Source: an uncultured Candidatus Saccharibacteria bacterium
GTDB taxonomy: Bacteria > Patescibacteriota > Doudnabacteria > UBA920
Reading direction: 5' to 3'
Assembly: GCA_964512925.1 (NCBI GenBank)
Contig: CAZEKH010000004.1
Coordinates: 2,431 to 66,430, forward strand
DNA length: 64,000 nucleotides
Shown here: one piece after another, positions 7,143 to 26,757 of the stretch
Layout of the letters: every line of letters begins with the position of its first letter
How positions within the stretch are numbered: the first letter of the stretch is position 1
Notes under the pieces: model-generated
The model's database searches: none
Told to the model about the DNA's origin: nothing
Seen by the model: the letters and a program-made list of their open reading frames with translations, nothing else
Program-made: the position numbers and the translations under genes

Positions 7143-9761
7143 ATGAAAATTTGGAATTTTGGGAAACGTTTTTGGTTATATAGATCGGTAAATTTAATAT
7201 TGGCTTTGATTTTAAGTTTCGGGTTTATGGTCAAGCCTGCCGAGGCGGATAGCCTGCAAGGCTTGAAAGTTCCGTCTGTGTTGTCGCAGAATACTCCAGA
7301 GCTTTTGGCTGACTTTAACAATGTCCGGGCAAAGGTCAGTGTATATCTAGATGGTTGGGAAGCGGGAAAAGCCAGGCTTAGGGTCGATATGCAAAGATTG
7401 TATCAAGATTCAGCAAGTGTAATAGGTTACCGCCTGCGTATTTTTCCTTATGGAAAAACTTCAGTTAGAGATTATTTGCATTATGAATTTGCCGGCACTA
7501 ATGATAGCCAATATACCAGATATGTTTTTAATCCTGATCAGAAGTATTGGGTTGAATATCTGTTGAGATATAAATCGGGGAGCGTTGTATATCTGTACCG
7601 TATTGCCAGGCTGGAGATTATAATCCCGAAAGAAGAGTCCGGAGCTTCTTCGTCAACTCCGCTTCCGACAATTTATCCATCCCCGATAATTTCTGTGGTT
7701 CCGACGGTGTATCCGACGGTTGTACCTACTATTGTCCCAACTCCAGCACCCCTAGTCCAGACACAAACCGGAATAGAGGTTTCCTATCTAGGCAAGCTTG
7801 GTGATTTTACCGGCGCGGGCAACTATTTGCCTGACGGAGCTTCGGATTCCGGCATCAGGGTTAAGCTGGTTGGTCAAAAATCCGAAACAATCTCCAAGCT
7901 GGAAGTTAAAAGCAGTATCGGAGGAGTTTGGAATACCGCGCAGAATAGCCCGAATTGGTATTTAAAAGGGGTTTTGGATTCAAACGGAATACTTTTAAAC
8001 ACGCCCCTTAGAACTGTTAACTTTCCGCTAAATCCGAGTCAAACTTTTACTATTTATTTTTCAGACACCTTAAATAATGATTATGTGCCAGCCGGGTCAG
8101 TTTTAACTGTTTTGGTTACTTTAAGCAGCGGCCAGGAAATTTCGGCAAATGTTTTTGCCATACCCGGCGCTACAGGAGCGTCGCAAACAAATTCTGGCAA
8201 TCCCCCTCAGCCAGGCGGTAGTCCTAACTTGGAAATAGATACTGCCAATATAGTGAATTTCAGTCCGGTGAATAAGTCTGTAAATGAGCCGAGTAGAAAT
8301 GTAAACGGGCAGCCGGTAGTCAGACTGGACACAGACGGCAATGCCATAGACGCGCATGATGGAGAGATTAAAAAATTTGGCAATACTTACTATTTGTATG
8401 GAACCAGCTATAACTGCGGTTTTGAATATTTAAGTTACAACCAAAAACCTTTCTGCGGGTTTAAGTCGTATTCTTCGCAAGATATGGTGCATTGGAAAGA
8501 CGAAGGACTGCTTTTTGACCCGAGTTCCCAGTACTGGCAAACTTTGTGCGCTAGCTTAGGCTGCTTTAGGCCGCATATGATATATAACCAGCAAACCGGT
8601 CAATACGTCCTTTGGATAAATGCTGCGACAAATGATGTCGGTTACAGGGTATTGACCAGTAGTTCGCCGGTTTCCGGATTTGTGCTGCAAAGTTTGCCAA
8701 ATCAAATGAAGCGCAAAGCTTGGGCAGGGGATCATAACTTGTTTGTAGATGACAACGGTTCAGCTTATATCATCGGCACAAACTATGGAGTTGAGGGAGA
8801 GGTGTTTAAGCTGGTGGTTGAAAAGTTAAACGGCAGTTATACCGATGCAACCGGGGAGTTTTCGTATGTCAGTCAGGAAGGCTTGGGAGAAGCCCCTTCA
8901 ATAGTAAAAAGAAACGGTATATATTATTTGCTATACAATCCTGGATGCCCGTATTGCCCGGAAAGCCCTACCAGGTATTTTACTTCTTTTTCCCCAATGG
9001 GTCCTTGGGTCTATAAAGGCGAGATTTCTGCCACTTCCTGCGGTGGGCAGCCAGCCCATATAGAAAAAATCGGTGACAGATATTTATATATGAGTGATTT
9101 GTGGCACCAAAACAAACCTTTTGTTTTTACCGAAGAAACTAAGCATAAAATTTATAAAAACCAAGGCAGGGCTAACTATTTCTGGAGCACTTTGTCTTTT
9201 GCTTCAGACGGCAGTTTACAGCCTTTGGTATGCAGTCAGAGTTTGCCCAATCCTTTTGTGGTTTCTTCAGGCAGTCAAAAGTCGATTTATAACCTTGATC
9301 AGTCTTCCGGGGTTTCTGGATTTTCCCAGGTTTGCGATATAGACAGCACAAAGCCTCGTTTACAAAAGTTCACAGCAGGAAAAACCGGCAGGCTAAATTC
9401 CGTAAGTGTCAATGTGTTTCAAAGCGGCCAGTTGGGAGATGCTTTTGTAAATGGGGATTTGGTTTTGGAAATCTCGGAGATGTCAGGTAGCCAGCCGGGC
9501 AGTGTGTTGTATTCGCAAGTAGTGGCGAAAAATGCCATAGGTTTTTCCGCTAGGAAAGTAACCATCCAGCCAAACATATCAGTCAGCGCAGGTAAAACTT
9601 ATGCTGTAACCCTTAAAACTTCATCCCAAGGTCAGGGCTGTTATGGAGTTTTGTACAGTGATGCCAACCCATATAACTTAGGCGAGTCAATGGTATTTGG
9701 TGGCGGAGGTTATACTGCTGAAACCAACCGGGATATAAAATTTGAAACTCAAGTACAGTAA
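7143..9761 (+). CDS. secreted glycoside-hydrolase-like protein with a five-bladed beta-propeller (GH43-like) core
   Basis: Signal peptide followed by a Pro/Thr/Val-rich linker (PTVYPTVVPTIVPTPAP). The propeller motifs are DAHDGEIKKFGNTYYLYGTSY, WKDEGLLF, YVLWINA and EAPSIVKRNGIYYLLYN. Confidence 0.5.
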   Translation: MKIWNFGKRFWLYRSVNLILALILSFGFMVKPAEADSLQGLKVPSVLSQNTPELLADFNNVRAKVSVYLDGWEAGKARLRVDMQRLYQDSASVIGYRLRIFPYGKTSVRDYLHYEFAGTNDSQYTRYVFNPDQKYWVEYLLRYKSGSVVYLYRIARLEIIIPKEESGASSSTPLPTIYPSPIISVVPTVYPTVVPTIVPTPAPLVQTQTGIEVSYLGKLGDFTGAGNYLPDGASDSGIRVKLVGQKSETISKLEVKSSIGGVWNTAQNSPNWYLKGVLDSNGILLNTPLRTVNFPLNPSQTFTIYFSDTLNNDYVPAGSVLTVLVTLSSGQEISANVFAIPGATGASQTNSGNPPQPGGSPNLEIDTANIVNFSPVNKSVNEPSRNVNGQPVVRLDTDGNAIDAHDGEIKKFGNTYYLYGTSYNCGFEYLSYNQKPFCGFKSYSSQDMVHWKDEGLLFDPSSQYWQTLCASLGCFRPHMIYNQQTGQYVLWINAATNDVGYRVLTSSSPVSGFVLQSLPNQMKRKAWAGDHNLFVDDNGSAYIIGTNYGVEGEVFKLVVEKLNGSYTDATGEFSYVSQEGLGEAPSIVKRNGIYYLLYNPGCPYCPESPTRYFTSFSPMGPWVYKGEISATSCGGQPAHIEKIGDRYLYMSDLWHQNKPFVFTEETKHKIYKNQGRANYFWSTLSFASDGSLQPLVCSQSLPNPFVVSSGSQKSIYNLDQSSGVSGFSQVCDIDSTKPRLQKFTAGKTGRLNSVSVNVFQSGQLGDAFVNGDLVLEISEMSGSQPGSVLYSQVVAKNAIGFSARKVTIQPNISVSAGKTYAVTLKTSSQGQGCYGVLYSDANPYNLGESMVFGGGGYTAETNRDIKFETQVQ

Positions 9762-11845: not shown

Positions 11846-12253
11846 TTACTCGCGGCTGTGGGTAGGCCTTGGAACAGCGTCCAGGCCTTGTTCTAAGATG
11901 AAATTTTTTAGTCCCTCCGGGACGTTTCTGGTTCCTGGCAGCGCCAGAAACCAGAGATGCTGTGGGTACCACTGCGCGGTTACCCACTGCACTTCCGCCC
12001 AAGCCTGGGCAGAGAGGTTTGCGGAAGTTAGGTCTACGACCAGCACTTCCGACCCCTCCAAAGGCCAGCCCGTGCAAAGCGCTTGCCGCGCTTCGTCTCG
12101 GGTGGCAAGTTCCCCGGATATGACGATCCGGGTGAACTCTCCTTCTTTCCTCACAACTTTACGCGACCAAGTTCTGGTCAAGCGTATGTAAAGAGGGCGG
12201 AAAAAGAGAAAAATTACAAAAACTATAATATAATTCATCTTCCTCCACTTCAA
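11846..12253 (-). CDS. hypothetical protein with an N-terminal TM segment and a possible STAS-like fold, in a GC-enriched segment
   Basis: N-terminal hydrophobic NYIIVFVIFLFF, then RIVISGELATRDEARQAL...LVVDLTSANLS. Local GC is clearly above the window average. A minus-strand hairpin plus T-run lies at the 3' end (about 11836-11862). Confidence 0.3.
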   Translation of the reverse strand: MKWRKMNYIIVFVIFLFFRPLYIRLTRTWSRKVVRKEGEFTRIVISGELATRDEARQALCTGWPLEGSEVLVVDLTSANLSAQAWAEVQWVTAQWYPQHLWFLALPGTRNVPEGLKNFILEQGLDAVPRPTHSRE

Positions 12254-12895: not shown

Positions 12896-13304
12896 GTTTA
12901 AGGGTCTGGACAAGTAACTAATTTACTGATATTATTAGCTGTTCTTACAGCTTGGGACGGAGGAGTTATGAAAACCAGTGAACTGTGTGGGTTTGTGTTG
13001 TTGGTTTGCTGTTGCGTTTTTACTGTGGTACTAGTTAAGACCGAAACAGCCTCCATGTTGGAGGAGCAACAAAAAGCCACAGAAAGAATAAGGATCGAGA
13101 ATGTACGGTTGGCTTCTCGCCAACTGGAAACGGAGCGATACATGCACTCAATCGGGTGCATAACTCTGGATTGTGCTATCAGCAAGGCGATGAAGCATTG
13201 AGCTGAAGCGCTAAATAAACATCCCAATTATCCTGTTTTTAAACAGGCCGCTCGCGCGACGGATTTCGTGCTTTTTTTAATGTTAAATTTATTTCTTATA
13301 AACA

Positions 13305-13332
13305 ATTGGGGGAATTACCCATTGTTTTAAGC
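13305..13332. repeat. imperfect palindrome, copy 2 (see 12868)
   Basis: AACAATTGGGGGAATTACCCATTGTT. Confidence 0.6.
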
Positions 13333-13697
13333 ATTGAAAAAACCCTAGAAAAATGCTAGGATATAGGCCTTGGGGATGACGGTTTTTGACAGGTCTTTGA
13401 CATCTTTTTATATGCAAGGCGAGCTAGTCTGTAGCCTCGTAAATCCTACGGACATCAACAAATGCTGTTGAAACCTCTTGGAACAAAGTTGTTAAAGCTT
13501 TTGCTTTAGCTGATTTTGCTCCTGTTGCTGCTTAATAAAGTAGCAACACATACCCTTTCCCCAATTCCGGGAAAGACCAGTATGCTTATTTGGAATTTGC
13601 GGTTTTAAGGTTTGATTTGCACTTTAAAACCAAAGGCATTGTAAATCAATTTCAATGAATTTTCGCCAGACTTTGTTCATTGAAATATCAAGTTTGG

Positions 13698-15305
13698 CTA
13701 ACCTTGTGAACAATGGAAAGATTGAGAAGTTCTGGACCCGGGTTTAACTCCCGGCATCTCCACCATATTAGTTTTTGAGGTGTTAACTTGTGTTAATGCC
13801 TCTAAGACAAGCGGTAATTTTGGTGTTCCAAAGCCTGTGAATTTGTCGTATGATAATCCTTTGTTAAAGTAAACGTTCAAAAGTGTTCTTTTCTCAATGA
13901 TTTCAGGGCTGTTCCAGTGATTTAGAGGGTGTTCCAAATAGCCAAAGACCAATTGTAGAGCTTTTAAAAAATCTTGTGTATTATACTGCTGAATTTTACC
14001 CGCCGATTCAATGGCGGTTTTTTGTTTGAGTAAATTTTCTAACTCAATTTCGTAATGGCGAATAAGCGTTTGATTAGAAGTTTCAGAAATTCTTTGGGTT
14101 AGATTGCTAATCTTGGTGTTAAATTCGTTTATTTGTTTCAAATTTGCCTCTTGATTGCTAATTTCGCCATTTTGCCTTTTTTGCCACACATCAAGGAGTA
14201 TAGCTTCGGCTAGCTTTAAAATTTGAGTTTTGGGGGTAAGTTTCGCAAGCAGTATTTCAAAGTCTTTATGGACTTCTGTTTGTCGTAAGGTTTTATTGCG
14301 GTTTGAGCAAAACGGATACTTACACCAGTAGTGGGGGTAAAGAGTGCCGAGTTTGCCTTTATGCCAACTTGCAGTCATTGCTCTATTGCAGTTTGGACAA
14401 AGTAAATAATTCCTTAAAGGAAAATCAGCACTAAGGTCTTGGCGCATTTGCGGTTTAAGTCTAGTTTGTAATCGGGTTTTAACTGCTTGTAAAGTTTCGA
14501 AAGAAATAAACCCTTTATGTTTAGCTTTTCTAAAATCAACATCCCAATTTTTATATTCCAAATAGCCGGCATAAAGCGGATTAATCAAAATAGTTTTGGT
14601 TGCGTCTGCGCTTAAACTTTTCTTTAAGCCCTTAAGTTTATATTGTTCAAGTATAAATTGTCTGACTGCTTCAATGGTGTTAAGTTCGTAATCTCTAAAT
14701 TTTTCTATGGCTTGTTTGTAAATTACAGAAAATACCCCGTCAGGAGCTAATATATTGCCCTCGTGATCTTTTCTTTGGAATTTTAAGCCAGGTGGAGCGT
14801 GAAATGCCCAGTAGCCAAGTTCTAGCCTAGCTTTTTGTTTTTGGATAACTTGCCTGCGATTTTGTTCTCGTTCTAACTGTGAGGTGGCGGCAATAATATT
14901 TTCTACAAAAATTCCTTCAGGGGTTTCTTCAAACTTAAAATTTAAACACTCCAACTTAGCCAATCTTGAACCAAATTCTTTTTTTAGCTTTAAATGAACT
15001 TCTATATCTCTTGCAAATCTTTTTATGTCGTCAAATATAACAACGAACTTTTCTGAACTATTTTTGTCTAAAAACTTTAATACTTCTTTCATTGCAGGGC
15101 GTTCAAATAATCCGCCTGAAACACCTTCGTCTCGGAATATTTTTATAACTTCTAAGCCTTTAGCTAGGGCGTAAGCAATACACCTGTGCTCTTGGCTTTC
15201 TAAACCGCTACCCTCGGAAACTTGCTGGCCAGAAGATACACGGCAATAAATTAAGGCTTTTTGGTATTCATTTAGGTTTGTGTTGTTTTTCATATGTGTT
15301 ATCAA
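13698..15305 (-). CDS. large serine recombinase (phage-integrase type). TTG start as called by the ORF track.
   Basis: Resolvase catalytic domain ALIYCRVSSGQQ...VVIFDDIKRFARD, a recombinase domain, the zinc ribbon CPNCNRAMTASWHKGKLGTLYPHYWCKYPFC, and a C-terminal coiled coil. The last ~20 codons read through the tRNA-like fragment. Confidence 0.85.
   Translation of the reverse strand: MITHMKNNTNLNEYQKALIYCRVSSGQQVSEGSGLESQEHRCIAYALAKGLEVIKIFRDEGVSGGLFERPAMKEVLKFLDKNSSEKFVVIFDDIKRFARDIEVHLKLKKEFGSRLAKLECLNFKFEETPEGIFVENIIAATSQLEREQNRRQVIQKQKARLELGYWAFHAPPGLKFQRKDHEGNILAPDGVFSVIYKQAIEKFRDYELNTIEAVRQFILEQYKLKGLKKSLSADATKTILINPLYAGYLEYKNWDVDFRKAKHKGFISFETLQAVKTRLQTRLKPQMRQDLSADFPLRNYLLCPNCNRAMTASWHKGKLGTLYPHYWCKYPFCSNRNKTLRQTEVHKDFEILLAKLTPKTQILKLAEAILLDVWQKRQNGEISNQEANLKQINEFNTKISNLTQRISETSNQTLIRHYEIELENLLKQKTAIESAGKIQQYNTQDFLKALQLVFGYLEHPLNHWNSPEIIEKRTLLNVYFNKGLSYDKFTGFGTPKLPLVLEALTQVNTSKTNMVEMPGVKPGSRTSQSFHCSQG
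13738..13765 (+). other. tRNA-like 3' fragment (T-arm, acceptor 3' strand, discriminator, CCA). No matching 5' half is present, so this is a candidate att-site remnant.
   Basis: CCGGG-TTTAACT-CCCGG (5-bp T-stem, 7-nt T-loop), then CATCTCC, A, CCA. No complementary GGAGATG acceptor 5' strand occurs within 100 nt upstream. It lies under the 3' end of the serine recombinase ORF. Confidence 0.4.
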
Positions 15306-15659
15306 GAATATTGGTAATTATAAAATACAGGGAATTTCTAATTTCCTCAACTTGCTTGTCGGTTAAGTCAAGCCCTATAAGATATTTTTTACATTCTTTT
15401 ACACTCAACATTGCTTTATGTATGTTATAATAGGCTTGCTAATTATTAACCCAGAAAGGCAAAATCTATGATTACAAATCAAGGGAAATTGCTCGAAATG
15501 GCTGTTGAAATTACCAAAGAATATGCCAGAAGCGGAGAAGCCAAAAGTGGTGCCGTGCAGACAGTTCTTGAAGAAGTTTTTAACAAGCTTGTAGAGCTAA
15601 ACACCAAAGGCTAGTGGTATTATTATGTTTTAAAAGCGATTCGTAATTACGGGTCGCTT

Positions 15660-16461
15660 TTAAGTTTTTAACAAACTATCGACTTGAAAACCGTCTGGAA
15701 AAATCATGTCTACCTGTTTAACATTTTTCCCGTCAGGGGTTGTGTATTCAGCTTTTTTAATTACACATTGCGTTACGTCAATTTTTTTATTTAATTCTTC
15801 TATAGACTCTGGGTTTCGTATAACTACGGGTTTTTTTAAATTGCGGGAGGAGTAAAATCTTTTGGCAAATTTTTTGTGTTTTTCGCCCATGTCTTTTTGA
15901 ATGTATTTAGAAATATAATTAGCTAAGTGTTCTAAATTTTTTGTTGATTCATTAAAAATAAATCCTTGTCCCCAAATTTCAGTAAGAACTTTGTGAGGGT
16001 CTTTAAGGATTGGGATATTAAAAAGTACAACATGATAATGCACCGCACCACGTTTTTGGTATTCTGGGACTGCAATATAGGCTAAATTATTTTTGATTTT
16101 TGACATAGTAATTAAGCCTTTTTAAAAAGTTTTTAAATATAATATTTGCCTCCTTTAAATCTTGAATATTTTCAGCGAAAGTTAAGGTTAAAAATTGGGG
16201 AACAAATCGCTTTTTTGTTTGGGGGTTAAAGTACTGCCAACCATTGCACCAAATTAACCGTTTTAAAGCACTCTTGGCTTTTCTTGCGCTCTCTTCAGGG
16301 TTGGCTAATTTTTCGTAAATAATTTTATTTACATGAGGCTTTTGGTTTACACTAAAGGCGTAACCAATTGGCCTGTCGTATTCTTGAATGGTTATTTTAG
16401 AACCTGTGATTATTAATATTTTATTTGTTATTTTCATCGCCTTATGTTTCTTTAATATCAA
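15660..16461 (-). pseudogene. rolling-circle replication initiator (HUH endonuclease, Rep_trans-like) split by a frameshift into two overlapping ORFs (16087..16461 and 15660..16106)
   Basis: Motif 1 FLTLTF sits in the upstream ORF. The HUH motif HYHVVLF and the catalytic Tyr region ANYISKYIQKD sit in the downstream ORF. The ORFs overlap by 20 nt in different frames. The combined length of about 265 aa is typical of RCR Rep proteins. Confidence 0.6.
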
Positions 16462-16464
16462 GTA

Positions 16465-16625
16465 ATACAGAGAGCCGGGCGGCCGCCATTTTGGCGGCGC
16501 GCCCGGGCACCCATCTGCCGTATAGGCACCGTGGTTGACACCGGGTAAGTCAGAGCCACGCGGAACCCGGTTTATGTGCCTGCCGGCATGACCGTAAACC
16601 TGCTCCGTGCGAACCCAACAAAAAA
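16465..16625. other. GC-rich (>60%) structured segment between rep and the next gene; candidate double-strand origin or ncRNA
   Basis: GAGCCGGGCGGCCGCCattttGGCGGCGCGCCCGGGC is a long imperfect hairpin, and further GC-rich stems follow. The composition contrasts sharply with the ~38% GC flanks. It holds no ORF. Confidence 0.35.
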
Positions 16626-16688
16626 CCTAGGGGTTAACCTAGGTGAAGCATACAGAGCAAAGTTTGGGAAAGTTGGGGAAAATATTGA

Positions 16689-17582
16689 TTACAAAAAAAG
16701 CTCGTTAATACGCACTGTTCCTGCTCTTTCGGAGGTGGCGATTAAAAAATCTTTATTTGCCCCCGGGAGCTTTTCTGTAATTAACTTAGGAATTTTTGCA
16801 TTAATACGAATGCAAATATCATAATATTTACGCCATTTGCTTTTACTTTTATCATAATCATAGTCACCGAAAGCATTTTCAGCGATATCTGCATACGGAA
16901 TTGTTTTTCCCAAAGATTTTCTATCTGAAAATATATATTCTAAAAGCCGATTTTCGTTTGTGTTTGCTTTTCGAGGCTTTATAACAATCCGTTTACCTTT
17001 TAAAATAAGAATACCGTTAATATATTCAAGCTTTAGAAGTTTTTCTTCTTGTGATTTTTGAACAACTTCCTGAACATCAGGGTTAGCCAGCTGTCTGAGC
17101 AAATACCTATGAACTTTTTGCCATTTTGCTTTAATATCTTTTTCGTAAGTGTGATAGTAGTTATTTTTAGAAGTTTCGTTTTTATATAATTCCCAAATAC
17201 CTAACTGAATTCTATCCCAAATACTTTGGTGTTTATTTTTTTTTATATACTCAATTTCTTCTCCAAGAGTTCCTTTTTTTAGACTGTCTTCTGCCTCAGT
17301 AGCAAATACTAACTCCATATAGTCTTCCGAGCAGTTGGTGTAAAGTTTTTCGCCCAAGATTTTTTGCATTATTTCATACTCTTTTTCGTTTCTGGCTTTT
17401 GGTATTTTGTGTCTAGCGCTTCTTAAATCTTGATGCTCATTTTCAATCATCTTTTTTAGCAAAGGCGTTTTTTCAACAAATTTAACATAAGCACCTATCT
17501 TTAAAATGAAATCAAAAGAGACAGGGAGGTTTATTCCTCTATTGTAAATTTTCTTAAGCTTTTCTTCGGTTTTTGTAGGCAT
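16689..17582 (-). CDS. hypothetical protein (297 aa) in the mobile-element-like region
   Basis: Long ORF with a Lys/Glu-rich, coiled-coil-like centre. No recognisable motif. Confidence 0.4.
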   Translation of the reverse strand: MPTKTEEKLKKIYNRGINLPVSFDFILKIGAYVKFVEKTPLLKKMIENEHQDLRSARHKIPKARNEKEYEIMQKILGEKLYTNCSEDYMELVFATEAEDSLKKGTLGEEIEYIKKNKHQSIWDRIQLGIWELYKNETSKNNYYHTYEKDIKAKWQKVHRYLLRQLANPDVQEVVQKSQEEKLLKLEYINGILILKGKRIVIKPRKANTNENRLLEYIFSDRKSLGKTIPYADIAENAFGDYDYDKSKSKWRKYYDICIRINAKIPKLITEKLPGANKDFLIATSERAGTVRINELFL

Positions 17583-17699
17583 AACTGGATTATAACAGCG
17601 AAATTTGCTATATTTTAAGTATAACTAAATAGCCTAAACCTGAGCAATCGGGCATGGCACAAAAAAATCTCAAGACGATACTGAACCCCGCGTTCAGCT

Positions 17700-17772
17700 A
17701 TTCGTCTTGAGTCATACCCGAAAGGGTATGGGGTGTAAAAGCCCGGCTGACACGGGGCTTTGTGTTTTTATA
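17700..17772. repeat. structured ~65-nt repeat, copy 1
   Basis: GAGTCATACCCGAAAGGGTATGGGGTGTAAAAGCCCGGCTGACACGGGGCTTTGTGTTT. It is preceded by a 10-bp inverted repeat CTCAAGACGA...TCGTCTTGAG. The related copy is at about 20331-20405. Confidence 0.6.
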
Positions 17773-17782
17773 AAAAAAATTT

Positions 17783-18286
17783 ATGATTGAACTAATATTA
17801 TTTATTGCACTGATTTTCATTATTTTTGGGGTCATTGCATTCTTCATTAACCTTATCAAAAAACACTCATTTTCTGATACCATTTTTCAAAACGCCTATT
17901 ACAAAAAACAGTATTTAATTACTAAAGCCGAACACCAGTTTTTTAATATTCTGCAAGAAATAGTTCGGGACAAATACTATGTTTTTCCACAAATCCATTT
18001 AGCCAGTTTGCTTGAAGTAAAAAACAGTGAGAAAAATTGGAGATCCTATTTCAATAAAATAATCCGCAAATCCGTTGACTTCGTTATTTGCGACAAACAA
18101 TATTTAAAGCCACTGCTCGTCATTGAGCTAGACGACCTTACTCATTATCGTTATAAGAGGCAAGATCGAGACCAGTTTGTAAATCAAGCATTAGAATCTG
18201 TAGGGCTAAAATGCCTTCATATACGTACATCTTACTCTTATAATTTGGAGGAACTAAAAAGCCAAGTATTGCAGGGATTGTTATAA
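17783..18286 (+). CDS. DUF2726-domain protein (restriction-endonuclease-like fold) with an N-terminal TM anchor
   Basis: TM segment LILFIALIFIIFGVIAFFI, then VDFVICDKQYLKPLLVIELDDLTHY...RDQF, which matches the DUF2726 pattern vDFvl...p.laIElDg.sH...RD.f. Confidence 0.55.
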   Translation: MIELILFIALIFIIFGVIAFFINLIKKHSFSDTIFQNAYYKKQYLITKAEHQFFNILQEIVRDKYYVFPQIHLASLLEVKNSEKNWRSYFNKIIRKSVDFVICDKQYLKPLLVIELDDLTHYRYKRQDRDQFVNQALESVGLKCLHIRTSYSYNLEELKSQVLQGLL

Positions 18287-18377
18287 AAGTGCTTAACATA
18301 TTTTTATAAAATTGACTTTATTTACGCATAGTTTTATACTTGGGTGAAAGAATATTTTAATGTAAAAGGCTAAATTA

Positions 18378-18794
18378 GTGGCGGAAGATCAAAAAAAATA
18401 TAAATACGAAAGCGATGAACAAATATTTAAGGAGTTGTTTGTCGGTTTTGATGATTTCTTTAAACCCATTTTTGAAAGTTTTTCCATAAGCAAAAAAACT
18501 TTTGTGCTGCAAGTAGTAAATTTTATTTTAATATTTTATTGGTTTTATTTACTATTAGGTGATGCACCAGACAGATTACTTACTAAAATTAATGGAAGTG
18601 GCGTACTGGGAATGAGACTTTTATTACTAGTTGTAGTTGTGTGTGGAATCTCGTTAATTACCAAAAATAAAATTTTAAGATGGCAGACACTATTTATGAC
18701 AAAGTATGAATTGACCCAAAGTTATTTTTGGAGAATCTTGTTTCTAGTAGCACTAACATATTTTGGTAATAAAATTTATGCAAAAAGACATTAA
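18378..18794 (+). CDS. hypothetical polytopic membrane protein
   Basis: Three to four hydrophobic helices (FVLQVVNFILIFYWFYLLL, LLLLVVVVCGISLI, FWRILFLVALTYF). Confidence 0.35.
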   Translation: MAEDQKKYKYESDEQIFKELFVGFDDFFKPIFESFSISKKTFVLQVVNFILIFYWFYLLLGDAPDRLLTKINGSGVLGMRLLLLVVVVCGISLITKNKILRWQTLFMTKYELTQSYFWRILFLVALTYFGNKIYAKRH

Positions 18795-19512
18795 GAATAA
18801 AATATTAGCTATTGGCGTTTTAATTTTTGTGGTGGGCTTGACGATTGGAATTATTCAATTAGTCGGTGTTGGTATTGATTGGCTAAGGAAAAAATTAGAT
18901 TTGCCGAATACCTCTAATCCTGGAAGCGCACAACTAGCTCCAGGTTTATCTAGCAGTACTCCAGAGCGAGTTCAGCTTTCACAAAATTCTGATTTTGATT
19001 TTTATAATACACTAAATAAAATAGCACTATCTTCTTCTACAGAAAGCTGGGTTAATAAAAATGGAAAAGTGGAAGGGAGAATATATAAAAAATTTATTAG
19101 AGTCGATGGGGATATTTCTAATGCATACTTATTTGTTGAGGTCTCGGTTGATAATAATAAGCCTTTAACTGTTTGGGATAGTATATACGTTTCTTTAAGA
19201 AAGGAAGTTGGTGGTTATTTGTACGAACCTGTTGCTGGTCATTTGTTAAGATCAAAAAGTTTAAATATACCACCTTCTAATACCACGAGGTTGCTGTATG
19301 ATATGCAACAAATACCTTTTACGACTATCCCTTATTCGGATAATAATAATTTTGTAAACAAAAATTGGTTGTCAAATATTCAAACAGCTAAGACTTTTCA
19401 ATTTGAAACTTTCCTGTCTACAAGCAGAAAAGGCGGAAAGATTGTTAATATAAGCATCGGCTATCAATGTGCTCAAGAAACTCCTAATTGTAAACTAGAA
19501 GTAATCCAATAG
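18778..19512 (+). CDS. hypothetical membrane-anchored or secreted protein. The likely start is MQKDIKNK.
   Basis: N-terminal TM segment ILAIGVLIFVVGLTIGIIQLVGVGI, then a hydrophilic domain with two Cys near the C-terminus. Confidence 0.35.
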   Translation: MQKDIKNKILAIGVLIFVVGLTIGIIQLVGVGIDWLRKKLDLPNTSNPGSAQLAPGLSSSTPERVQLSQNSDFDFYNTLNKIALSSSTESWVNKNGKVEGRIYKKFIRVDGDISNAYLFVEVSVDNNKPLTVWDSIYVSLRKEVGGYLYEPVAGHLLRSKSLNIPPSNTTRLLYDMQQIPFTTIPYSDNNNFVNKNWLSNIQTAKTFQFETFLSTSRKGGKIVNISIGYQCAQETPNCKLEVIQ

Positions 19513-19625
19513 TTGTTTAAATTTTAATAGCCCTTAATCGGGCTATTTTTACTACATATTTAGGACGCCAGAAATTCTAAAAATTTCCTCATAAAGTAAG
19601 TTCCACCCATTTTTGAGAATCTCCA

Positions 19626-20000
19626 CCACTGCTTCGCCAAGGCTACGAAGTGCAAGCACACCGATAATGCTCGCCATTTGAAAAAGTTAAAACATTAGTA
19701 GCAACGAAGCAGTGCCCTTCGAAGCTTTAAGCGTAGTAGGGCTGTATCTTCTTCGCCAAGGCTACGAAGTGCAAGCACTGCTTATAGATAGGTTTGTTTA
19801 AAAAGTAAGCTTGTAAATTTACGATGCGAAGAAGTGTCCTGCGTAGCTTTAGCGAAGCAGGGCTGTATCTGCTTCTCTTTCACCTTCGCCAAGGCGACGA
19901 AGTGCAAGCACACCGATAATGCTAGCCATTTGAAAAAGTTAAAACATTAGTAGCAACGAAGCAGTGCCCTTCGAAGCTTTAAGCGAAGTAGGGCCATAAG
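19626..20000. repeat. non-coding array of ~110-bp repeats: two full copies plus partial internal copies
   Basis: CTTCGCCAAGGCTACGAAGTGCAAGCACACCGATAATGCTCGCCATTTGAAAAAGTTAAAACATTAGTAGCAACGAAGCAGTGCCCTTCGAAGCTTTAAGCG(T/A)AGTAGGGC occurs at about 19633-19745 and about 19886-19998. Partial copies lie between them (CTTCGCCAAGGCTACGAAGTGCAAGCACTGC..., GCGAAGCAGGGCTGTATCTGCTTC). Confidence 0.75.
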
Positions 20001-20058
20001 TTTATAAAATGCCCAACTATAAGGTTGGCTTTTTATTTTGGAGTGATATAATTCTTAT

Positions 20059-20298
20059 ATGCACTATACCTACATTCTCCAAAGCCTGCTAGATAAAAGC
20101 CATTATGTCGGCTCAACCCACGATTTAAAATCACGGATTGTTAAACATAACAACGGTGAGGTAACCTATTCAGCAAAAAAACGCCCTTGGAAACTGGTTT
20201 GGTACTGCGCTTTCCCAACAAAAAAGCAAGCAGTTGATTTTGAGCTCTATCTAAAACAAGGTTCAGGCTTTGCCTTTGCAAGAAAACATCTGGTTTAA
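20059..20298 (+). CDS. small GIY-YIG nuclease-family protein (UPF0213/YhbQ-like)
   Basis: YTYILQSLLDKSHYVGSTHDLKSRIVKHNNGE...WKLVWYCAFPTKKQAVDFELYLK matches the GIY-YIG core (YxYIL...YVGsT...R...H...kpWkLv..e.f....A...E..lK). Confidence 0.7.
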   Translation: MHYTYILQSLLDKSHYVGSTHDLKSRIVKHNNGEVTYSAKKRPWKLVWYCAFPTKKQAVDFELYLKQGSGFAFARKHLV

Positions 20299-20330
20299 AA
20301 TTAAAAAAGCTCCTTACCCCTTTTGTTTTT

Positions 20331-20405
20331 CCCAACGAGTCATATCTCGAAAGGGATATGGGTTCCGCAAGGGATCGGCTGGCGTGGGGCTTTGTGTTTC
20401 TGCGC
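20331..20405. repeat. structured ~65-nt repeat, copy 2 (related to 17700-17772)
   Basis: GAGTCATATCTCGAAAGGGATATGGGTTCCGCAAGGGATCGGCTGGCGTGGGGCTTTGTGTTT. Confidence 0.6.
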
Positions 20406-20433
20406 CGGCTTCTATCATTAAAAGAAATTTTAT

Positions 20434-20649
20434 ATGTTCGCGAAAAACAAGCTGCCGGTATTAGCAATAGCAATCTACACGTTTTTTAACCTTAAAGCGG
20501 TTTTGGGAATTATCTTCACTAAAGGTTGGTGGATGTTAGTTTTCACTACCAGTAATAATAGCGCGAGCACACTGACGCTAGGGGTAGTACTAGGATTATT
20601 CCTAAATGTTGGGGTCATACTGTATTTTTGGAAAAATATCAAAGTCTAA
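20434..20649 (+). CDS. small two-TM membrane protein (71 aa), hypothetical
   Basis: LPVLAIAIYTFFNLKAVLGIIF and LTLGVVLGLFLNVGVILYFW. It lies directly upstream of the large nuclease-NTPase gene. Confidence 0.3.
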   Translation: MFAKNKLPVLAIAIYTFFNLKAVLGIIFTKGWWMLVFTTSNNSASTLTLGVVLGLFLNVGVILYFWKNIKV

Positions 20650-20784
20650 GTACGGATATTAAAAATGTCAGGGGTATAATTCCCTGACATTTTTGTTAAA
20701 TGAGGCAAAAATATGAGGAGTGTTCCTGTAATTTTTCTCCCTAATATGTTATGATTTTAGTGAAAATACAGTATTCCAATCACT

Positions 20785-23469
20785 ATGTGCCTATTTTCTA
20801 CCCTTGAAGAATTAAAGAATGAAAGTGACGTAGAACAAAAGCTGGTTCTGCCTATACTAACAAGCCAGCCGCCTTTAGGTTTGGGTTTTTTAGTATCTGA
20901 TTTTAGAACCAAACCCGATATCAGACAAATTCAGATAGGAAAAGGATCAAGTTCAAAATTATACTTTCCTGACTATGTCGTTATAATGCAAGGCTTACCA
21001 CTTATGATAATCGAAGTGAAAAGACCTGGGGAAGACCTAAATGAAGCACTTAAAGAAGCTCGATTATATGCGTCAGAATTAAACGCCGAATACCCTGCTA
21101 AAATAAATCCGTGTTATAAAGTGGTTGTTACGAATGGGGAAAAAATTATATGCGCTGATTGGGATTCTAGTATTCCAGAATTAACTATTGAGTTTAAGGA
21201 TATAAATACCTCCAGCAAACCTTACGCTCAACTTATCTCTATACTATCGAGGGTAAGCATTTTTACCTTTGGCGAACAGATATACAAAAGAGTTAGAGGT
21301 AATAGAAAATTTCATAAGCCTACATTATCACTGGGTGGGAACTCTGTGCAGCATCAAGAGTTAGAACAAAATACTTTTGGGACATCCCTTGCTTTGGATT
21401 ACAGGCATATTTTTAACCCCACTACTTTAGAGGATCGAAAAAATATTGTTCAGCATGCCTACGTGCCATCAAAAAAAAGATTAAAACATGTTCAACCAAT
21501 TGATAGGATAATTAGGGCTGCGAAGCCTCCCAGCATAACAGACGCAAGGGCAATAAGCAGTACTGAAAATCCAAAAGAAATATACGATCAACTAAAAAAT
21601 AATAAATCTTTAATTGGCGAAATTTTACTTTTAATAGGGAGTGTCGGTTCAGGTAAAACAACTTTTATTGATTATTTAAGGGAGGTGGCCTTACCTCAAA
21701 ATTTGAAGAGAGATACAGAATGGGTCTTAATTGATTTGAATGATGCCCCTTTAGCAAAAGAAGAAATTTACAAATGGGTAAAAATTAAGATGATCGAGGG
21801 GCTCAAAGAAGCTCATCCTGATATTGATTTCGACGAACTTTCAACTCTAAAAAAGATTTTTTCAGTAGAACTAGCTAAGGTCGAGAAAGGAACGGCGGCT
21901 TTATTTGAAAAAGATTCAATTCAACATAAAGAACTTTTAGCAAATAAGCTTTCTTCTCTACAAGAAGATAATGACGCTATTCTAAAATATCTTATTAAAT
22001 ATCTTTGTGAAAGTCAGAACAGACTGCTTATAACTGTTTTGGATAACTGTGATAAACGCAATAGAGAAGATCAATTGCTAATGTTTGATCTTGCGAAATG
22101 GCTTCAAAAAGAATACGCGAGTTTAATTTTTCTCCCGTTACGGGATGTTACTTATGATCACCATAGAAAAGAACCACCACTTGATACTGCAATAAAGGAT
22201 TTGGTTTTTAGAATTGACCCTCCTACTTTTGCGGAAGTCATTTACAAACGTGTAAAATATGCTTTAAGAAACGCGCCTAATACCCTCTATTACAGCTTAC
22301 CTAATGGCATGACTGTCGCTTATAATAAAGAAGAACGTGAAACGTATTTAGCGTGTATACTTCGTTCATTATTTCAAAATGATATCTTTTTTAAGAGGTT
22401 GGTGGCAGGGCTTGCGGGTCGTAATATAAGAAAAGGGATAGAGTTATTCTTAGATTTTTGTAAAAGTGGCCATATTAGTGAATCAGAAATTCTAAAAATG
22501 AGACATTCAAAAGGCGACCACCTAATCCCACCTCATTTAGTCACAAGGGTTTTATTCCGAGGGAATCGAAGATATTATAACGATGTTAATTCAAATGTAA
22601 AAAATTTATTTACTTCCGAACCAAAGGATGTGATTCCAGATCCATACTCACGTCTTGCTATTTTACGTTGGCTCTCAAATAAATTTAAGGTCCGCGGCCC
22701 TAATGGCGTAATGGGCTACCATAAAGTATCTGAATTGATAAAACAGCTCGTCCCACTTGGACATAATGATGATAGAATCAGAGTTGAAATAAAAAATCTG
22801 GTTACCGCAGGGTGCGTCAGTACAGAATCACAGGATGATATTGAGGAAAACAACATTACAATAGATGACGAAGATTTAATAACAATTGCACCCGCAGGTC
22901 ACATACACTTAGAACTATTATCTAATTTAGATTATCTTTCATCCTGCTCCGAAGATTTATGGTACAGCGAGCAAGAATTAGCAGAAAAAATTTCTAAAAG
23001 GTTAATCGGTGGCGGGACTACGGGACACCTTTCCTTGCGTGCGTCTTATGAAAATGCTAAGGATATGGTTGATTATTTAATGAGATATAAGGGGCATGTG
23101 CTATCGAAGCCAGAATTATATCTTGCTAATAATTCTTTTGAACATCTTACAGACTTTACTCAAAGTCTCAAGGCCATCGAAAAATCACAAAGGAATCTTC
23201 ATGTAGAGCCTGGGTCTGATAAATTAAAACTACTATACCCAAACGGTACTACAATGGAAGCTCAAGTTGTTTCTATTCAAACATATGGGATTTTTGTTGA
23301 GTTTGGCTTACACGCTACAGGCTTAATCCGTTTTGATAAAACGGCAAAAGTTGAAAAACCCGGAAGCCTTCTCTACGAAGATGTAGAAACTGGTGACTGG
23401 GTTAAAATTGAAGTTATAAATTATAATGAGTACCATAAAAAGTTTGATGTTAAAATTTTAAGTGAATAA
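20785..23469 (+). CDS. multidomain protein: N-terminal HsdR_N/Mrr-like PD-(D/E)xK nuclease domain, a central P-loop NTPase (Walker A and Walker B), and a C-terminal S1-type OB-fold RNA-binding domain. Candidate STAND-like defence protein.
   Basis: N-terminus EQKLVLPILTSQ...LGF...PDYVVIMQGLPLMIIEVKRPGEDLNEALKEARLYA matches the HsdR_N pattern (PDyvlf..g.pl.viEaK...l..a..Qa..Ya). Walker A is LLLIGSVGSGKTTFIDYL and Walker B is LLITVLDNCDKR. The C-terminus GTTMEAQVVSIQTYGIFVEFGLHATGLIRFDKTAKVEKPGSLLYEDVETGDWVKIEVINYNEYHKKFDVKILSE matches the S1 consensus (G.V.i..fGaFV.l..g..GL.h.s......P......G..v.vkV...d.....i.LS). Confidence 0.6.
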   Translation: MCLFSTLEELKNESDVEQKLVLPILTSQPPLGLGFLVSDFRTKPDIRQIQIGKGSSSKLYFPDYVVIMQGLPLMIIEVKRPGEDLNEALKEARLYASELNAEYPAKINPCYKVVVTNGEKIICADWDSSIPELTIEFKDINTSSKPYAQLISILSRVSIFTFGEQIYKRVRGNRKFHKPTLSLGGNSVQHQELEQNTFGTSLALDYRHIFNPTTLEDRKNIVQHAYVPSKKRLKHVQPIDRIIRAAKPPSITDARAISSTENPKEIYDQLKNNKSLIGEILLLIGSVGSGKTTFIDYLREVALPQNLKRDTEWVLIDLNDAPLAKEEIYKWVKIKMIEGLKEAHPDIDFDELSTLKKIFSVELAKVEKGTAALFEKDSIQHKELLANKLSSLQEDNDAILKYLIKYLCESQNRLLITVLDNCDKRNREDQLLMFDLAKWLQKEYASLIFLPLRDVTYDHHRKEPPLDTAIKDLVFRIDPPTFAEVIYKRVKYALRNAPNTLYYSLPNGMTVAYNKEERETYLACILRSLFQNDIFFKRLVAGLAGRNIRKGIELFLDFCKSGHISESEILKMRHSKGDHLIPPHLVTRVLFRGNRRYYNDVNSNVKNLFTSEPKDVIPDPYSRLAILRWLSNKFKVRGPNGVMGYHKVSELIKQLVPLGHNDDRIRVEIKNLVTAGCVSTESQDDIEENNITIDDEDLITIAPAGHIHLELLSNLDYLSSCSEDLWYSEQELAEKISKRLIGGGTTGHLSLRASYENAKDMVDYLMRYKGHVLSKPELYLANNSFEHLTDFTQSLKAIEKSQRNLHVEPGSDKLKLLYPNGTTMEAQVVSIQTYGIFVEFGLHATGLIRFDKTAKVEKPGSLLYEDVETGDWVKIEVINYNEYHKKFDVKILSE

Positions 23470-23561
23470 AAGTACAGAAATATTTAACCTGTGTAAAACT
23501 CATTTTGTGATTTAGGGTATAATGAAAACAGGGCAATAGCCCTGCCTTTCGTTAAAATCCC

Positions 23562-23930
23562 TTAGCTACCTGTTATCAGGTCGTTGAGGGATTTTATATT
23601 ATGTTCCTCAAGATAAGTCCCGAGGTGCATATCGTCCCGAACACCCAGGTCGATTCCATATTGTTTCTCAATAGTCCCAATATGGGTATCGTCCCGCTTA
23701 TCGCGGAGTTGTCCGTTCTCGTTTCGAGAACGACAACCGCGCATGCCGGCAGCGTCATTATAGCATTTAGCCATAACTTGCCCTTTCCTTAATTGGAAGG
23801 CGACTAAATCCTTCTGGCCGTAATTCGACCAAGCCCGTAGAAGTCGATCCGTAACAGGAAGGAGTTTAGTATTATGGCAAAGGCTATGCCCTGTTTCCAC
23901 TTTTTGAATAACAATGGGGACATGACCCAT
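23562..23930 (-). CDS. hypothetical protein in a GC-enriched (~50%) segment
   Basis: 122-aa ORF flanked by hairpin terminators. No recognisable domain. Confidence 0.3.
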   Translation of the reverse strand: MGHVPIVIQKVETGHSLCHNTKLLPVTDRLLRAWSNYGQKDLVAFQLRKGQVMAKCYNDAAGMRGCRSRNENGQLRDKRDDTHIGTIEKQYGIDLGVRDDMHLGTYLEEHNIKSLNDLITGS

Positions 23931-24017
23931 TGTTATTTTTGATATATTTTCAATAAAAATTTATAAACGAAAAGCCGCCGAGGTTGTACCCGGCGGCGTT
24001 TTGGTCGTGGCATCCTC

Positions 24018-24380
24018 CTATTTCCACAAACCGTCGTAGTACTTGTCAGCGATTACCCATAAGCGGTATAGGTAGGTTACCCCAGAAACCAGCAAAATGT
24101 ATGACATTATCTTTTCCATTCCCCCCAGAAGCTCCGTAGGTGGGAGGAAAATCAGCATGAAGGCGACCCATCCCGAACTAAGATTGATGATCCTGGCGCG
24201 GTAAACGCCAAGCCTCTCGAAGACTGTCTTGGTTTCCGAAAGGCAATACACTGTCAACGACGAGAACAGTGTCAGCCAAACCGCCGTTTTCATATTTCCG
24301 TAGCGTTCAGTGACGCTATAGATTGCGAAATACAGGCCTAGAGCTGTCACGGCCTGCAAAAATGTACTTACGAATTTCAT
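24018..24380 (-). CDS. hypothetical four-TM membrane protein. The likely start is MKFVSTF.
   Basis: Helices FLQAVTALGLYFAIYSV, VWLTLFSSLTVYCL, WVAFMLIFLPPTELL and ILLVSGVTYLYRLWVI. A minus-strand terminator GCCGCCGGGTACAACCTCGGCGGC plus T-run lies at about 23972-24000. Confidence 0.4.
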   Translation of the reverse strand: MKFVSTFLQAVTALGLYFAIYSVTERYGNMKTAVWLTLFSSLTVYCLSETKTVFERLGVYRARIINLSSGWVAFMLIFLPPTELLGGMEKIMSYILLVSGVTYLYRLWVIADKYYDGLWK

Positions 24381-24552
24381 TTGTTTCCTCCCGCCAAGGT
24401 TTCCGAACAAATCAAAATACCACTATTTAGTGGAGTTTGTCAATCTTTTTTTAAAAGATAATTTACAAGATTTCGAATTCTAAACTTCGTTAAAGCTATG
24501 GCTTGCGAGGCAAGTTCGGAATGACACTGAATCTAATGGAAAAAAAATTACC

Positions 24553-24588
24553 AAAACACCCCGACCTAAGTCGGGGTGTTTTGGTTTT
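24553..24588. terminator. bidirectional intrinsic terminator
   Basis: AAAACACCCCGACctaaGTCGGGGTGTTTTggtttt. Confidence 0.75.
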
Positions 24589-24607
24589 GATAATTAAAAT
24601 AAAGTAT

Positions 24608-24835
24608 TTAGTGTATTGGCGGGCCGTCTGGTTCGTTTCGTCCTTCGGTGACTACAAAGCTCACGCAGTCGCCTTGGTTTTTGAACATCTGGCCGTAGTT
24701 TCTCCAACCGTCTTTTTTACACTGCTGAGCTTCAGTCGGGAAAGTCGGGGGAACCACAGCGGCAAAAGCCAAGCTGGAAAAAGCCATCAAACCTGCAGAA
24801 GCGGCAGCTCCAACCGCAATTTTAAATTTATTCAT
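24608..24835 (-). CDS. small secreted Cys-containing peptide (75 aa) with a signal peptide
   Basis: MNKFKIAVGAAASAGLMAFSSLAFA is a signal peptide. The mature ~50-aa peptide has 2 Cys (QQCKKDGWRNYGQMFKNQGDCVSF). The gene has its own terminator. Confidence 0.4.
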   Translation of the reverse strand: MNKFKIAVGAAASAGLMAFSSLAFAAVVPPTFPTEAQQCKKDGWRNYGQMFKNQGDCVSFVVTEGRNEPDGPPIH

Positions 24836-24891
24836 ATGATTTTATTTTTTTGTTTCTAAAAATTTTCGACCTTTTAGGTATTATATCACAA

Positions 24892-25275
24892 TCAATTATA
24901 TCTTTTGTATATATAGTTTACTTGAGTACTTAAATCAATGCCAAAAGATTCGGAAGATAGACTGAAACTTCCAGGTTCTCCCGGAGATTCGTTGTCTGAG
25001 CCTTTTGGCGTAAGTTGAGTTTTAGGATTGGTTAAAGATACTTCGTTAGTTCTTTGCATTCTTATAGCAGCTTTAGCTAATTCTTTAGGAGTAACTGTTT
25101 GATCCGCCAACTGTATACTAATAAGTATTTGTCCAAATGTCTGAGTTTTTTTTTCTATTAAAAAATGTCTGATAGCTTGTTCCAATAACACCTCTTCTGA
25201 TACTTCAGGCAAATTTAAAAGTTCCCTCAGCGCCCCATATTTATATTGTGGTTCTTTAAAAAATTCTCTAGCCAT
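24892..25275 (-). CDS. hypothetical protein
   Basis: 127-aa ORF whose start overlaps the stop of the upstream histidine phosphatase gene (translational coupling). Confidence 0.35.
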   Translation of the reverse strand: MAREFFKEPQYKYGALRELLNLPEVSEEVLLEQAIRHFLIEKKTQTFGQILISIQLADQTVTPKELAKAAIRMQRTNEVSLTNPKTQLTPKGSDNESPGEPGSFSLSSESFGIDLSTQVNYIYKRYN

Positions 25276-25907: not shown

Positions 25908-25982
25908 AGGCTAAATAGTTAGAAATTTTAGGGCAGACTTTTAAAACCTCCTCCCAGCCTTAGGCAAAAGAGGAGGCTTAGA

Positions 25983-26381: not shown

Positions 26382-26400
26382 AATTTTTCCTTTCGTGGAG

Positions 26401-26673: not shown

Positions 26674-26757
26674 ATATCTATTATAGCATGACTTTAGTGG
26701 GTAATAAAAACTATGTATTACGGTGCATAATACATAATACTTTATACAATATACTGA

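Follow-up and report, generated by a model that had tools for sequence, protein, structure and literature searches.

A probable small integrative rolling-circle plasmid at the tmRNA gene of a Patescibacteria genome, with an integrase gene that spans its own attachment site

A cluster of genes resembling those of a mobile element surrounds a large serine recombinase gene in a 64,000-nucleotide (nt) stretch of contig CAZEKH010000004.1 from an uncultured Candidatus Saccharibacteria bacterium, and raises the question of what kind of element it is, which gene it entered and where it ends. The whole stretch is referred to here as the window, and all coordinates are window positions. A first-pass annotation, made from the sequence alone, had drawn an island reaching to position 20420 and seated on the 3' fragment of a tRNA gene. 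Our analysis indicates that the locus is most probably a small integrative rolling-circle plasmid of a host in the Patescibacteria, or Candidate Phyla Radiation (CPR), which its own large serine integrase inserted at 13766-19628 (5,863 bp) in the last 10 nt of the transfer-messenger RNA (tmRNA) gene, ssrA (Table 1).

Protein families were sought with Pfam, PHROGs, NCBIfam and PADLOC, and RNAs with ARAGORN and Rfam. A scan of one genome per species identified 480 homologue loci, the best 80 of which were analysed (loci are denoted by L and a number), and database proteins at E<=1e-10 (P0001 onward) made up the integrase homologue set. Logan contigs from two sequencing runs served as a check of the assembly. 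Every matching contig was 100% identical to the window, with no alternative junction, and the contig breaks (at 13798, 15166 and elsewhere) look like low coverage rather than strain variation.

The tRNA-like sequence at the recombinase 3' end, for which the first-pass annotation had reported no 5' half nearby, proves to be the 3' terminus of a full tmRNA gene, recovered by both ARAGORN and Rfam. The match spans the full length of model RF00023, with a T-arm and an acceptor stem, GGGGAUG/CAUCUCC, that carries a G3:U wobble and is followed by ACCA (as read from the Rfam alignment). The tag frame encodes AVETSWNKVVKAFALADFAPVAA, whose hydrophobic end, ...ADFAPVAA, is followed by two stop codons (ARAGORN). 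The recombinase open reading frame (ORF) does read through the attachment site, as had been noticed: its last 68 nt (22 codons and the stop) are antisense tmRNA, and thus host DNA. The terminal 10 nt of the tmRNA gene, ATCTCCACCA, form the core of attL and leave the gene with an intact, functional 3' end.

The sole other copy of these 10 nt in the window stands in direct repeat at 19619, where it forms the core of attR and closes the element at 19628, so that the limit of 20420 lay too far to the right. The expected att duplication therefore exists, as a displaced copy of 10 bp and not of 28 nt. Two comparisons bear on this boundary. The relatives L088/L089, whose integrase is 78% identical, carry the identical 10-mer pair 6,576 bp apart, and the island-side flank of attR (AAGTTCCAC..ATTTTT) is kept between the window element and L088. 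L005 bears a different island, with an integrase 49% identical, next to the same host flank from the core onward, comprising one repeat unit and the GIY-YIG gene at ~80% nucleotide identity. Four independent observations, namely the L088/L089 repeat, the conserved flank, the peptide encoded there (see below) and the L005 host flank, together place the element at 13766-19628. Because L005 has a unit of the repeat array and the GIY-YIG gene beside a different island at the same site, array and gene both belong to the host-side flank; they are present as annotated, outside the island to which they had been assigned. A second, weak LOOT-like sequence and an 894-aa protein matching phrog_14719 also lie outside the element. 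Longer direct repeats (14-21 bp) occur at the tmRNA or tRNA ends of L037, L053 and L065. On the sequence, the crossover is placed within the core (antisense GTGGA), and the predicted empty attB reads CTCCCGGCATCTCCACCACTGCTTCGCCAAGG. The two partners have the same core sequence, so the tmRNA is not altered by integration.

These results leave almost no room for insertion into a tRNA gene that kept a 28-nt 3' fragment here, with its intact copy and the far boundary at another place in the genome. The terminal 26 nt do look like a T-arm, acceptor strand and CCA, and family members use tRNA genes in other phyla, but the supposed fragment belongs to a tmRNA gene present in full, which refutes this account, and the other boundary is in the window, 5.9 kb away. 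A second copy of the 26-nt end is neither required nor found: a pattern with 3 mismatches, sensitive blastn and 12-24-nt k-mers returned none in the window, because the displaced copy is only 10 bp long. What stands of the original proposal is that a mobile element bearing a serine integrase at its edge integrated site-specifically; its target is the tmRNA gene.

The recombinase was correctly recognized as such. It matches the Resolvase domain PF00239 (E 3.3e-22) and the integrase family phrog_95 (E 2e-54, residues 3-481), with the Recombinase domain PF07508 and the Zn-ribbon PF13408 just under their cut-offs and the CcrB model NF047343 (E 1.7e-17) far under its own. The catalytic motif is YCRVSS, with S24 invariant across 23 aligned sequences; C303, C328 and C333 are invariant in the integrase alignment and C306 nearly so, and the AlphaFold2 model of homologue P0051 has helices at 349-397 and 401-423. 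The protein has the catalytic domain with its serine, the recombinase domain, the zinc ribbon and the coiled-coil C-terminal half of a large serine recombinase. The TTG start first assigned to it is doubtful: from TTG the ORF encodes 535 aa, and from the ATG at 15293 it encodes 531 aa, the length of database protein P0001, and homologues align from there. The family comprises >1,370 homologues, the named ones from Patescibacteria, and integrase relatives in isolated phages and plasmids are no closer than 27% identity.

Antisense entry into a tmRNA or tRNA 3' end is general in this family. The integrase ORF extends at least 38 nt into such an end in 53 of the 53 scorable loci, 32 of them tmRNA loci, and the antisense T-arm peptide pattern xVE/D..G.EP.. 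is present in nearly all of these. Almost all CPR loci of sufficient length have a tmRNA gene directly against the integrase 3' end, in convergent orientation; tmRNA genes missed by ARAGORN in relative loci were recovered with Rfam. The target in Rhodobacterales, Gracilibacteria, Peregrinibacteria and others is a tRNA gene (Thr, Arg, Ala, Leu or Tyr). The C-terminal peptide VEMPGVKPGS...SQD had been considered as a selected sequence, a candidate that we rejected for a simpler explanation, namely that it looks conserved because a conserved T-arm and acceptor strand are read antisense in a fixed attP geometry.

As read from the joined sequence, the integrase gene spans attP. Immediately beyond the attR core, in frame with the integrase, lies the coding sequence for a conserved tryptophan-rich peptide, ILKNGWNLLYEEIFRISGVLNM followed by a stop codon, hereafter the W-motif (consensus V-D/E...WNQIxxYIWKWYPIL). 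Joined across the core, the window integrase ends ...TNMVEILKNGWNLLYEEIFRISGVLNM and a stop codon, and that of L088 ends ...ITMVEIFKNQWNLLYEEVLRLSGFI...; of the codon changes between the two tails, 7 are synonymous and 7 conservative. Four more repeat-bearing loci yielded related tails (WNQIxxYIWKW) when their ORFs were joined likewise. A hidden Markov model (HMM) built from these six tails detected 33 further fragments and was then rebuilt. The rebuilt model identified 41 fragments in 37 of the 80 loci, all upstream of the integrase and on the same strand, and GTGGAC or GTGGAG precedes 39 of the 41 at the distal junctions. Three control sets of equal size (the opposite strand, and both strands of the host side) gave 0 matches. 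In the window the fragment at 19552..19618 is the sole significant match (E<=0.001). Across the 37 loci the implied islands measure 3.4-10.4 kb, with a median of 6.5 kb.

The W-motif also occurs attached to integrases. With E<=1 the model matched 8 of the 120 best database homologues, strongly in four (P0051, P0036, P0047 and P0076). Two W-motif integrases are encoded on contigs of 7,539 and 10,950 nt that lack a tmRNA gene, whose ends overlap by 26 and 127 nt, and that we read as circular forms. In the AlphaFold model of one of these circular-contig integrases (mean predicted local distance difference test score, pLDDT, 87.5) the motif is helical, with a moderate pLDDT of 64-76. For the window element, the predicted attP junction of the excised circle is ...TTTTTGAGAATCTCCACCATATTAGTTTTTGAGG....

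The same comparisons speak to whether the recombinase might be a resident, vertically inherited neighbour of ssrA, such as a housekeeping invertase or resolvase, within an immobile block. Adjacency of integrase and tmRNA in dozens of CPR genomes fits such a resident gene, as does the inversion of ssrA and the island relative to the smpB block between the window genome and L004. The DNA between integrase and distal core is nevertheless wholly different among genomes, so the block lacks the conserved gene content that the earlier annotation had named as its refutation; island sizes span a threefold range (3.4-10.4 kb, above), five kinds of tRNA gene are targeted in other phyla, overlapping-end contigs without tmRNA exist, and L005 has a different island on the same host flank. 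We therefore give a resident recombinase scarcely any credence.

The sequences thus show that integration severs the final 22 integrase codons, whose place is taken by 19 codons plus a stop from the antisense strand of the tmRNA T-arm and of the 3' helix beside it. On the free circle, the ORF would continue through the core into the future distal end of the island, ending in a Trp-rich helix and giving a predicted protein of 534 aa. The two integrase forms would differ in activity or directionality, and the state of the element would be self-reporting. Integrase genes that contain their own attP are known from Myxococcus phage Mx8, where integration converts intP to intX, and from archaeal integrases of the SSV1 type. 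As in the window element, integration there cuts the integrase ORF so that free and integrated forms differ, and Mx8 likewise exchanges only the C-terminal end; the archaeal cases have been reviewed (PMC8371274). Those enzymes are tyrosine recombinases, whereas the window enzyme is a large serine recombinase whose replacement tail comes antisense from a tmRNA or tRNA gene. Engineered fusions of integrases with recombination directionality factors offer a further parallel, in that an attachment at the C-terminus of a large serine integrase can set the direction of recombination (Olorunniji et al., 2017, PMC5737554). Control of activity or direction by the tail swap is plausible for this reason, with the difference that the fusions are artificial and the C-terminal change in the window element would arise naturally from recombination itself.

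It is possible, although we would not call it probable, that the tail swap is a built-in directionality or expression switch, in which the full-length form integrates and the tail-swapped form maintains or excises the element, without or beside a separate directionality factor, and that in the same element the clade-specific +1 split of Rep is functional, as recoding or as an arrangement in two pieces, and the LOOT RNA a dedicated component (both described below). The 47-aa ORF overlapping the integrase start may encode a regulator or directionality factor: in 17 loci a homologue immediately precedes the integrase gene, with 79% identity in L004 and L088, and the libraries searched, PHROGs among them, gave no family match. 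Each member of the family has a short, defined core and an integrase with two natural states, which is relevant to the directionality of large serine integrases, which are widely used as genome-engineering tools.

Replication of the element may be attributed to a rolling-circle initiator, Rep. The annotation of an HUH Rep split by a frameshift at about 16087-16106 was borne out by profile search, both halves matching PF23343 and phrog_3419. The halves overlap by 20 nt, with ORF2 in the +1 frame. Motif I, the HUH motif and the Tyr motif are all present, distributed over two ORFs rather than one polypeptide, and H133, H135, Y174, K177 and Y178 are invariant in the Rep alignment (A5). The shift region, GTCAAAAATCAAAAATAA, falls at a loop of variable length in the alignment; deleting one A from its second run of five A yields a 266-aa Rep with motifs I-III that aligns lengthwise with single-ORF homologues. 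Nearly all of the ~350 Rep homologues are such single ORFs of 240-300 aa, that of L004 included. The exception is L088/L089, where Rep is split at the same place, with the ORF2 ATG at the same position and a run of six A. The window and L088/L089 halves share 50-68% protein identity, with nonsynonymous differences per site (pN) of 0.21 and 0.32 and synonymous differences (pS) of 0.85 and 0.70, the latter saturated.

The split is not an assembly error, one of the explanations first offered for it, because the Logan contigs of two runs reproduce it exactly. Of the others, decay and programmed frameshifting, simple recent decay is unlikely because L088/L089 share the split despite saturated synonymous divergence, and the best fit is either a working arrangement of two ORFs or recoding at a low level. 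Rep would then be made as two polypeptides, or fused through a +1 event in the A-run overlap.

Just upstream of rep lies the GC-rich hairpin segment that had also been picked out from the sequence (~16470-16640; GC content 0.59, fold z -3.5), followed by CTTGATA. This arrangement is a candidate double-strand origin, with the candidate nick region ACTTGATATT. The nick region of pC194 and phiX174 is CTTG/ATA, and the hairpin followed by ACTTGATATTAA presumably resembles it, which we take as a lead. The hairpin and GTATTACTTGAT, an ACTTGAT arrangement, are kept upstream of rep in L088, which shares this part of the segment alone; against L004 the segment has no nucleotide homology past short words. 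The excised circle would replicate by Rep from this putative origin. HUH replicons such as pC194 and phiX174 likewise carry motifs I, II (HUH) and III (Tyr); unlike theirs, Rep in the window clade consists of two overlapping ORFs, and no single-strand origin was identified.

Several observations weigh against an integrative plasmid that is active as described. The 10-mer match is weak alone, about 0.8 chance matches being expected by our estimate over the 10-mers tested, so the boundary rests on its combination with the W-motif and the L088/L089 and L005 comparisons. CTTGATA alone is not significant either, with 1.3 occurrences expected per island by chance, and the Rep split could be a hotspot mutation that arose twice at the A-run. 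Neither a circular junction nor an empty site was found for the window element; attP-junction patterns gave 0 matches in two scans of Joint Genome Institute (JGI) metagenome contigs, and the 90% clusters of P0001 and P0002 contain integrated-form proteins exclusively. No single-strand origin or transfer gene was identified in the element, and the junction scans and protein clusters gave no evidence that the window copy is mobile at present.

These points lead to the alternative that the locus is a decaying, immobile remnant, disabled by the Rep frameshift, in which only the integrase ORF survives. The position of the frameshift in a homopolymer-rich stretch, the single ORFs of nearly all Rep homologues and the lack of any circular form of the window element's clade on record would all be expected of a remnant. 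A dead gene would gain stops, however, and the two halves of Rep are uninterrupted ORFs here and in L088/L089 at the pS (0.70-0.85) and pN (0.21-0.32) given above; the conserved position of the ORF2 ATG and the placement of the split in a variable-length loop also count against decay, as do an integrase, a pair of att cores and a detached W-motif tail that are all intact. We consider a remnant unlikely, and retain the integrative plasmid as the far better account.

Five relatives (L011, L023, L039, L043 and L044) have, upstream of one integrase, either a pair of W-motif fragments or an additional tmRNA-like repeat (~80 nt), which suggests tandem or remnant islands at ssrA, as in Dehalococcoides.

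Between rep and attR the element carries cargo that varies among relatives. The 297-aa protein is present as annotated and has no match in Pfam, PHROGs, NCBIfam or PADLOC. The two ORFs first described as membrane or secreted proteins (138 and 249 aa) do have hydrophobic segments, N-terminal or internal, and no family match in Pfam or PADLOC. None of these three is conserved in L088; the DUF2726 protein, whose assignment also held (E 2e-34), is the sole cargo gene common to L088 (62% identity). The small plus-strand ORF between integrase and rep, first given as 49 aa, has 48 codons; it is called in the Logan contigs too, and has no homologue among relative loci. PADLOC detected no known defence system in the cargo. 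Two overlapping-end contigs, read as free forms of related elements, encode a TIR-domain protein, a trypsin-like protease and a LexA-like repressor (L090) and a restriction-modification set with Vsr and HNH (L091), and elements of this integrase family seem to move defence-type cargo.

The gene content also bears on a small prophage, an option raised in the first-pass annotation, or a phage satellite. Among PHROGs, the integrase matches an integrase family and Rep matches rolling-circle initiators that have relatives among the proteins of microviruses and inoviruses; PF23343 takes its name from replication proteins of plectroviruses and inoviruses, and the neighbouring 894-aa protein matches phrog_14719. 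Against this, Pfam and PHROGs returned no virion structural (capsid, coat, morphogenesis), packaging (terminase) or lysis family in 13766-19628, the 894-aa gene lies outside the element, and 5.9 kb with three ORFs of unassigned family leaves little space, although an inovirus-like coat protein could escape detection. A prophage or satellite is accordingly very improbable, and a plasmid-like element remains the preferred reading.

A LOOT RNA (RF03000) lies directly upstream of the DUF2726 gene in both the window element and L088. The Rfam match (17631-17744) scores 63.1 bits, against a gathering score of 46.4, and our own covariance model (R1) scores 137 bits. That model places LOOT in the loci of ten relatives (L005 at 8830-8973, L088 at 7317-7451, and L023, L008, L041, L021, L025, L036, L031 and L006), in all of them on the island side of the integrase and in none on the host side. 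Its 3' end has a conserved hairpin and U-run. The literature gives no function for the LOOT motif, an orphan RNA that here gains genomic context; it appears to be a component of tmRNA-targeting elements.

Serine integrases at ssrA have been described in the Dehalococcoides islands with the integrase DsiB (McMurdie et al., 2011, PMC3146451). These islands resemble the window element in their CcrB-like serine recombinase of ~540 aa, placed at the ssrA-proximal edge on the opposite strand; in the integrase ORF, which overlaps attL and ~70 bp of ssrA (68 bp in the window) and has its stop codon outside the island; and in the direct repetition of the ssrA 3' end at the far boundary. This likeness is one of architecture and of a shared resemblance to CcrB. 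The authors suggested that the integrase is perhaps complete only on the circle, and the conserved W-motif across attP is not described in that paper (PMC3146451). The repeat is 20 bp there and 10 bp in the window element; a six-gene module with the small serine recombinase DsiA is present there, whereas 13766-19628 contains no second Resolvase-domain ORF, ParB or Mom; and the RecF and embedded tRNA module of those islands is likewise missing. The window element differs further in its rolling-circle Rep, its LOOT RNA, its CPR host and a size of half or less. It is a compact variant of the Dehalococcoides ssrA-island type, joined here to a rolling-circle replicon and residing in a CPR bacterium, and the location of attP inside an integrase gene with a conserved detachable tail is new.

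Small actinomycete integrative and conjugative elements (AICEs) of the pSAM2 type also pair a rolling-circle initiator with site-specific insertion into the 3' end of tRNA-like genes. pSAM2 encodes a tyrosine integrase with Xis and an FtsK-like transfer gene. The window element departs from this type, its integrase being a serine recombinase and Pfam and NCBIfam detecting no FtsK or Tra domain in the element; Rep matches the RepSA models weakly, with scores far under the curated cut-offs (32 vs 34 bits and 17 vs 700 bits).

A 2020 survey, later than the Dehalococcoides work, nevertheless stated that the use of tRNA or tmRNA genes by serine integrases was previously unreported, and counted it in just 14 of 297 cases; the present family has hundreds to thousands of members, and is barely described in the literature searched. 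The window element is ordinary for its family, and it is the family-level features that merit attention: attP in the integrase gene, the Rep split and the LOOT association. CPR bacteria have tiny genomes and few characterised mobile elements, and this element class is compact and abundant (37 loci, sizes as above), with defence-like and nuclease cargo and with ssrA as its invariable landing site in these hosts.

Table 1. Features of the element and its immediate surroundings (window positions).
Feature	Position	Strand	Evidence
tmRNA gene ssrA, complete; integration target	13372..13765	+	ARAGORN; Rfam RF00023, 124.7 bits vs gathering score 47, model positions 1-374
Large serine integrase, integrated form	13698..15305; probable ATG 15293	-	Pfam, PHROG and NCBIfam matches; >1,370 homologues
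attL core ATCTCCACCA, tmRNA terminal 10 nt	13756..13765	+	sole other window copy at 19619
47-aa ORF overlapping integrase start	15268..15411	-	homologues in relative loci
48-aa ORF, opposite to rep and int	15468..15614	+	called in Logan contigs too
Rep ORF2, HUH motif II HYH and Tyr motif III YISKYIQKD	15660..16106	-	PF23343 E 3.6e-16; phrog_3419 E 1.4e-20
Rep ORF1, motif I FLTLTF	16087..16461; probable ATG 16437	-	PF23343, phrog_3419
Candidate double-strand origin: GC-rich hairpins, then GTATTACTTGATATTAA (CTTGATA 16456-16462)	16456..16640	-	DNA fold z -3.5
297-aa cargo protein	16689..17582	-	ORF call
LOOT RNA RF03000, terminator-like 3' hairpin	17629..17767	+	Rfam
DUF2726 nuclease-fold protein	17783..18286	+	Pfam E 2.1e-34
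138-aa ORF, hydrophobic segment, variable cargo	18378-18794	+	translation
249-aa ORF overlapping 138-aa ORF, hydrophobic segment, variable cargo	18763-19512	+	translation
Detached integrase 3' end (W-motif), in frame past core	19552..19618	-	HMM E 4.1e-10
attR core ATCTCCACCA, displaced tmRNA-end copy; right element boundary	19619..19628	+	10-bp direct repeat; L088/L089 and L005 comparisons
Repeat array: two 111-nt copies 97% alike and a diverged middle copy	19623-20006		repeat comparison
GIY-YIG protein	20059..20298		Pfam E 8e-18

On the host side of attR, the repeat array, reported earlier with a 110-bp unit, comprises three hairpin-rich tandem units of ~120-130 nt (19629-20006) whose first unit starts exactly where attR ends on the host side. 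The units occur nowhere else in the window, and one unit stands next to attR in L005. The second LOOT-like sequence (20248-20399) overlaps the 3' end of the GIY-YIG gene and has the same 24-nt 3' hairpin as the first copy; it scores 39.7 bits with Rfam (20248-20376), under the gathering score, and 29 with our own model. The 894-aa protein (20785-23469) has an HSDR_N nuclease-like N-terminus, a P-loop and a C-terminal S1 domain, and matches phrog_14719 over its full length (E 6.6e-134). Its gene lies in a low-GC block at 19.6-23.5 kb that may be older mobile DNA beside ssrA.

On the other side of ssrA, a GC-rich patch of ~330 nt (11880-12210; GC 0.53-0.62 in AT-rich surroundings) folds far more stably than shuffled controls, with z values of -8.2 on the minus and -6.3 on the plus strand. 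A structured RNA not described so far, or an element rich in hairpins, could account for this patch, which returned no Rfam match and overlaps a 135-aa ORF without a Pfam family.

The smpB gene immediately precedes ssrA in the majority of CPR loci. The two genes are convergent and 13.7 kb apart in the window (13372-27913), and in L004 the same HisPhos-PLD-smpB block has ssrA on its opposite side; this difference in position around the block indicates an inversion of ssrA and the island between the window genome and L004. Convergent ssrA and smpB genes are also found in L009, L010 and L044.

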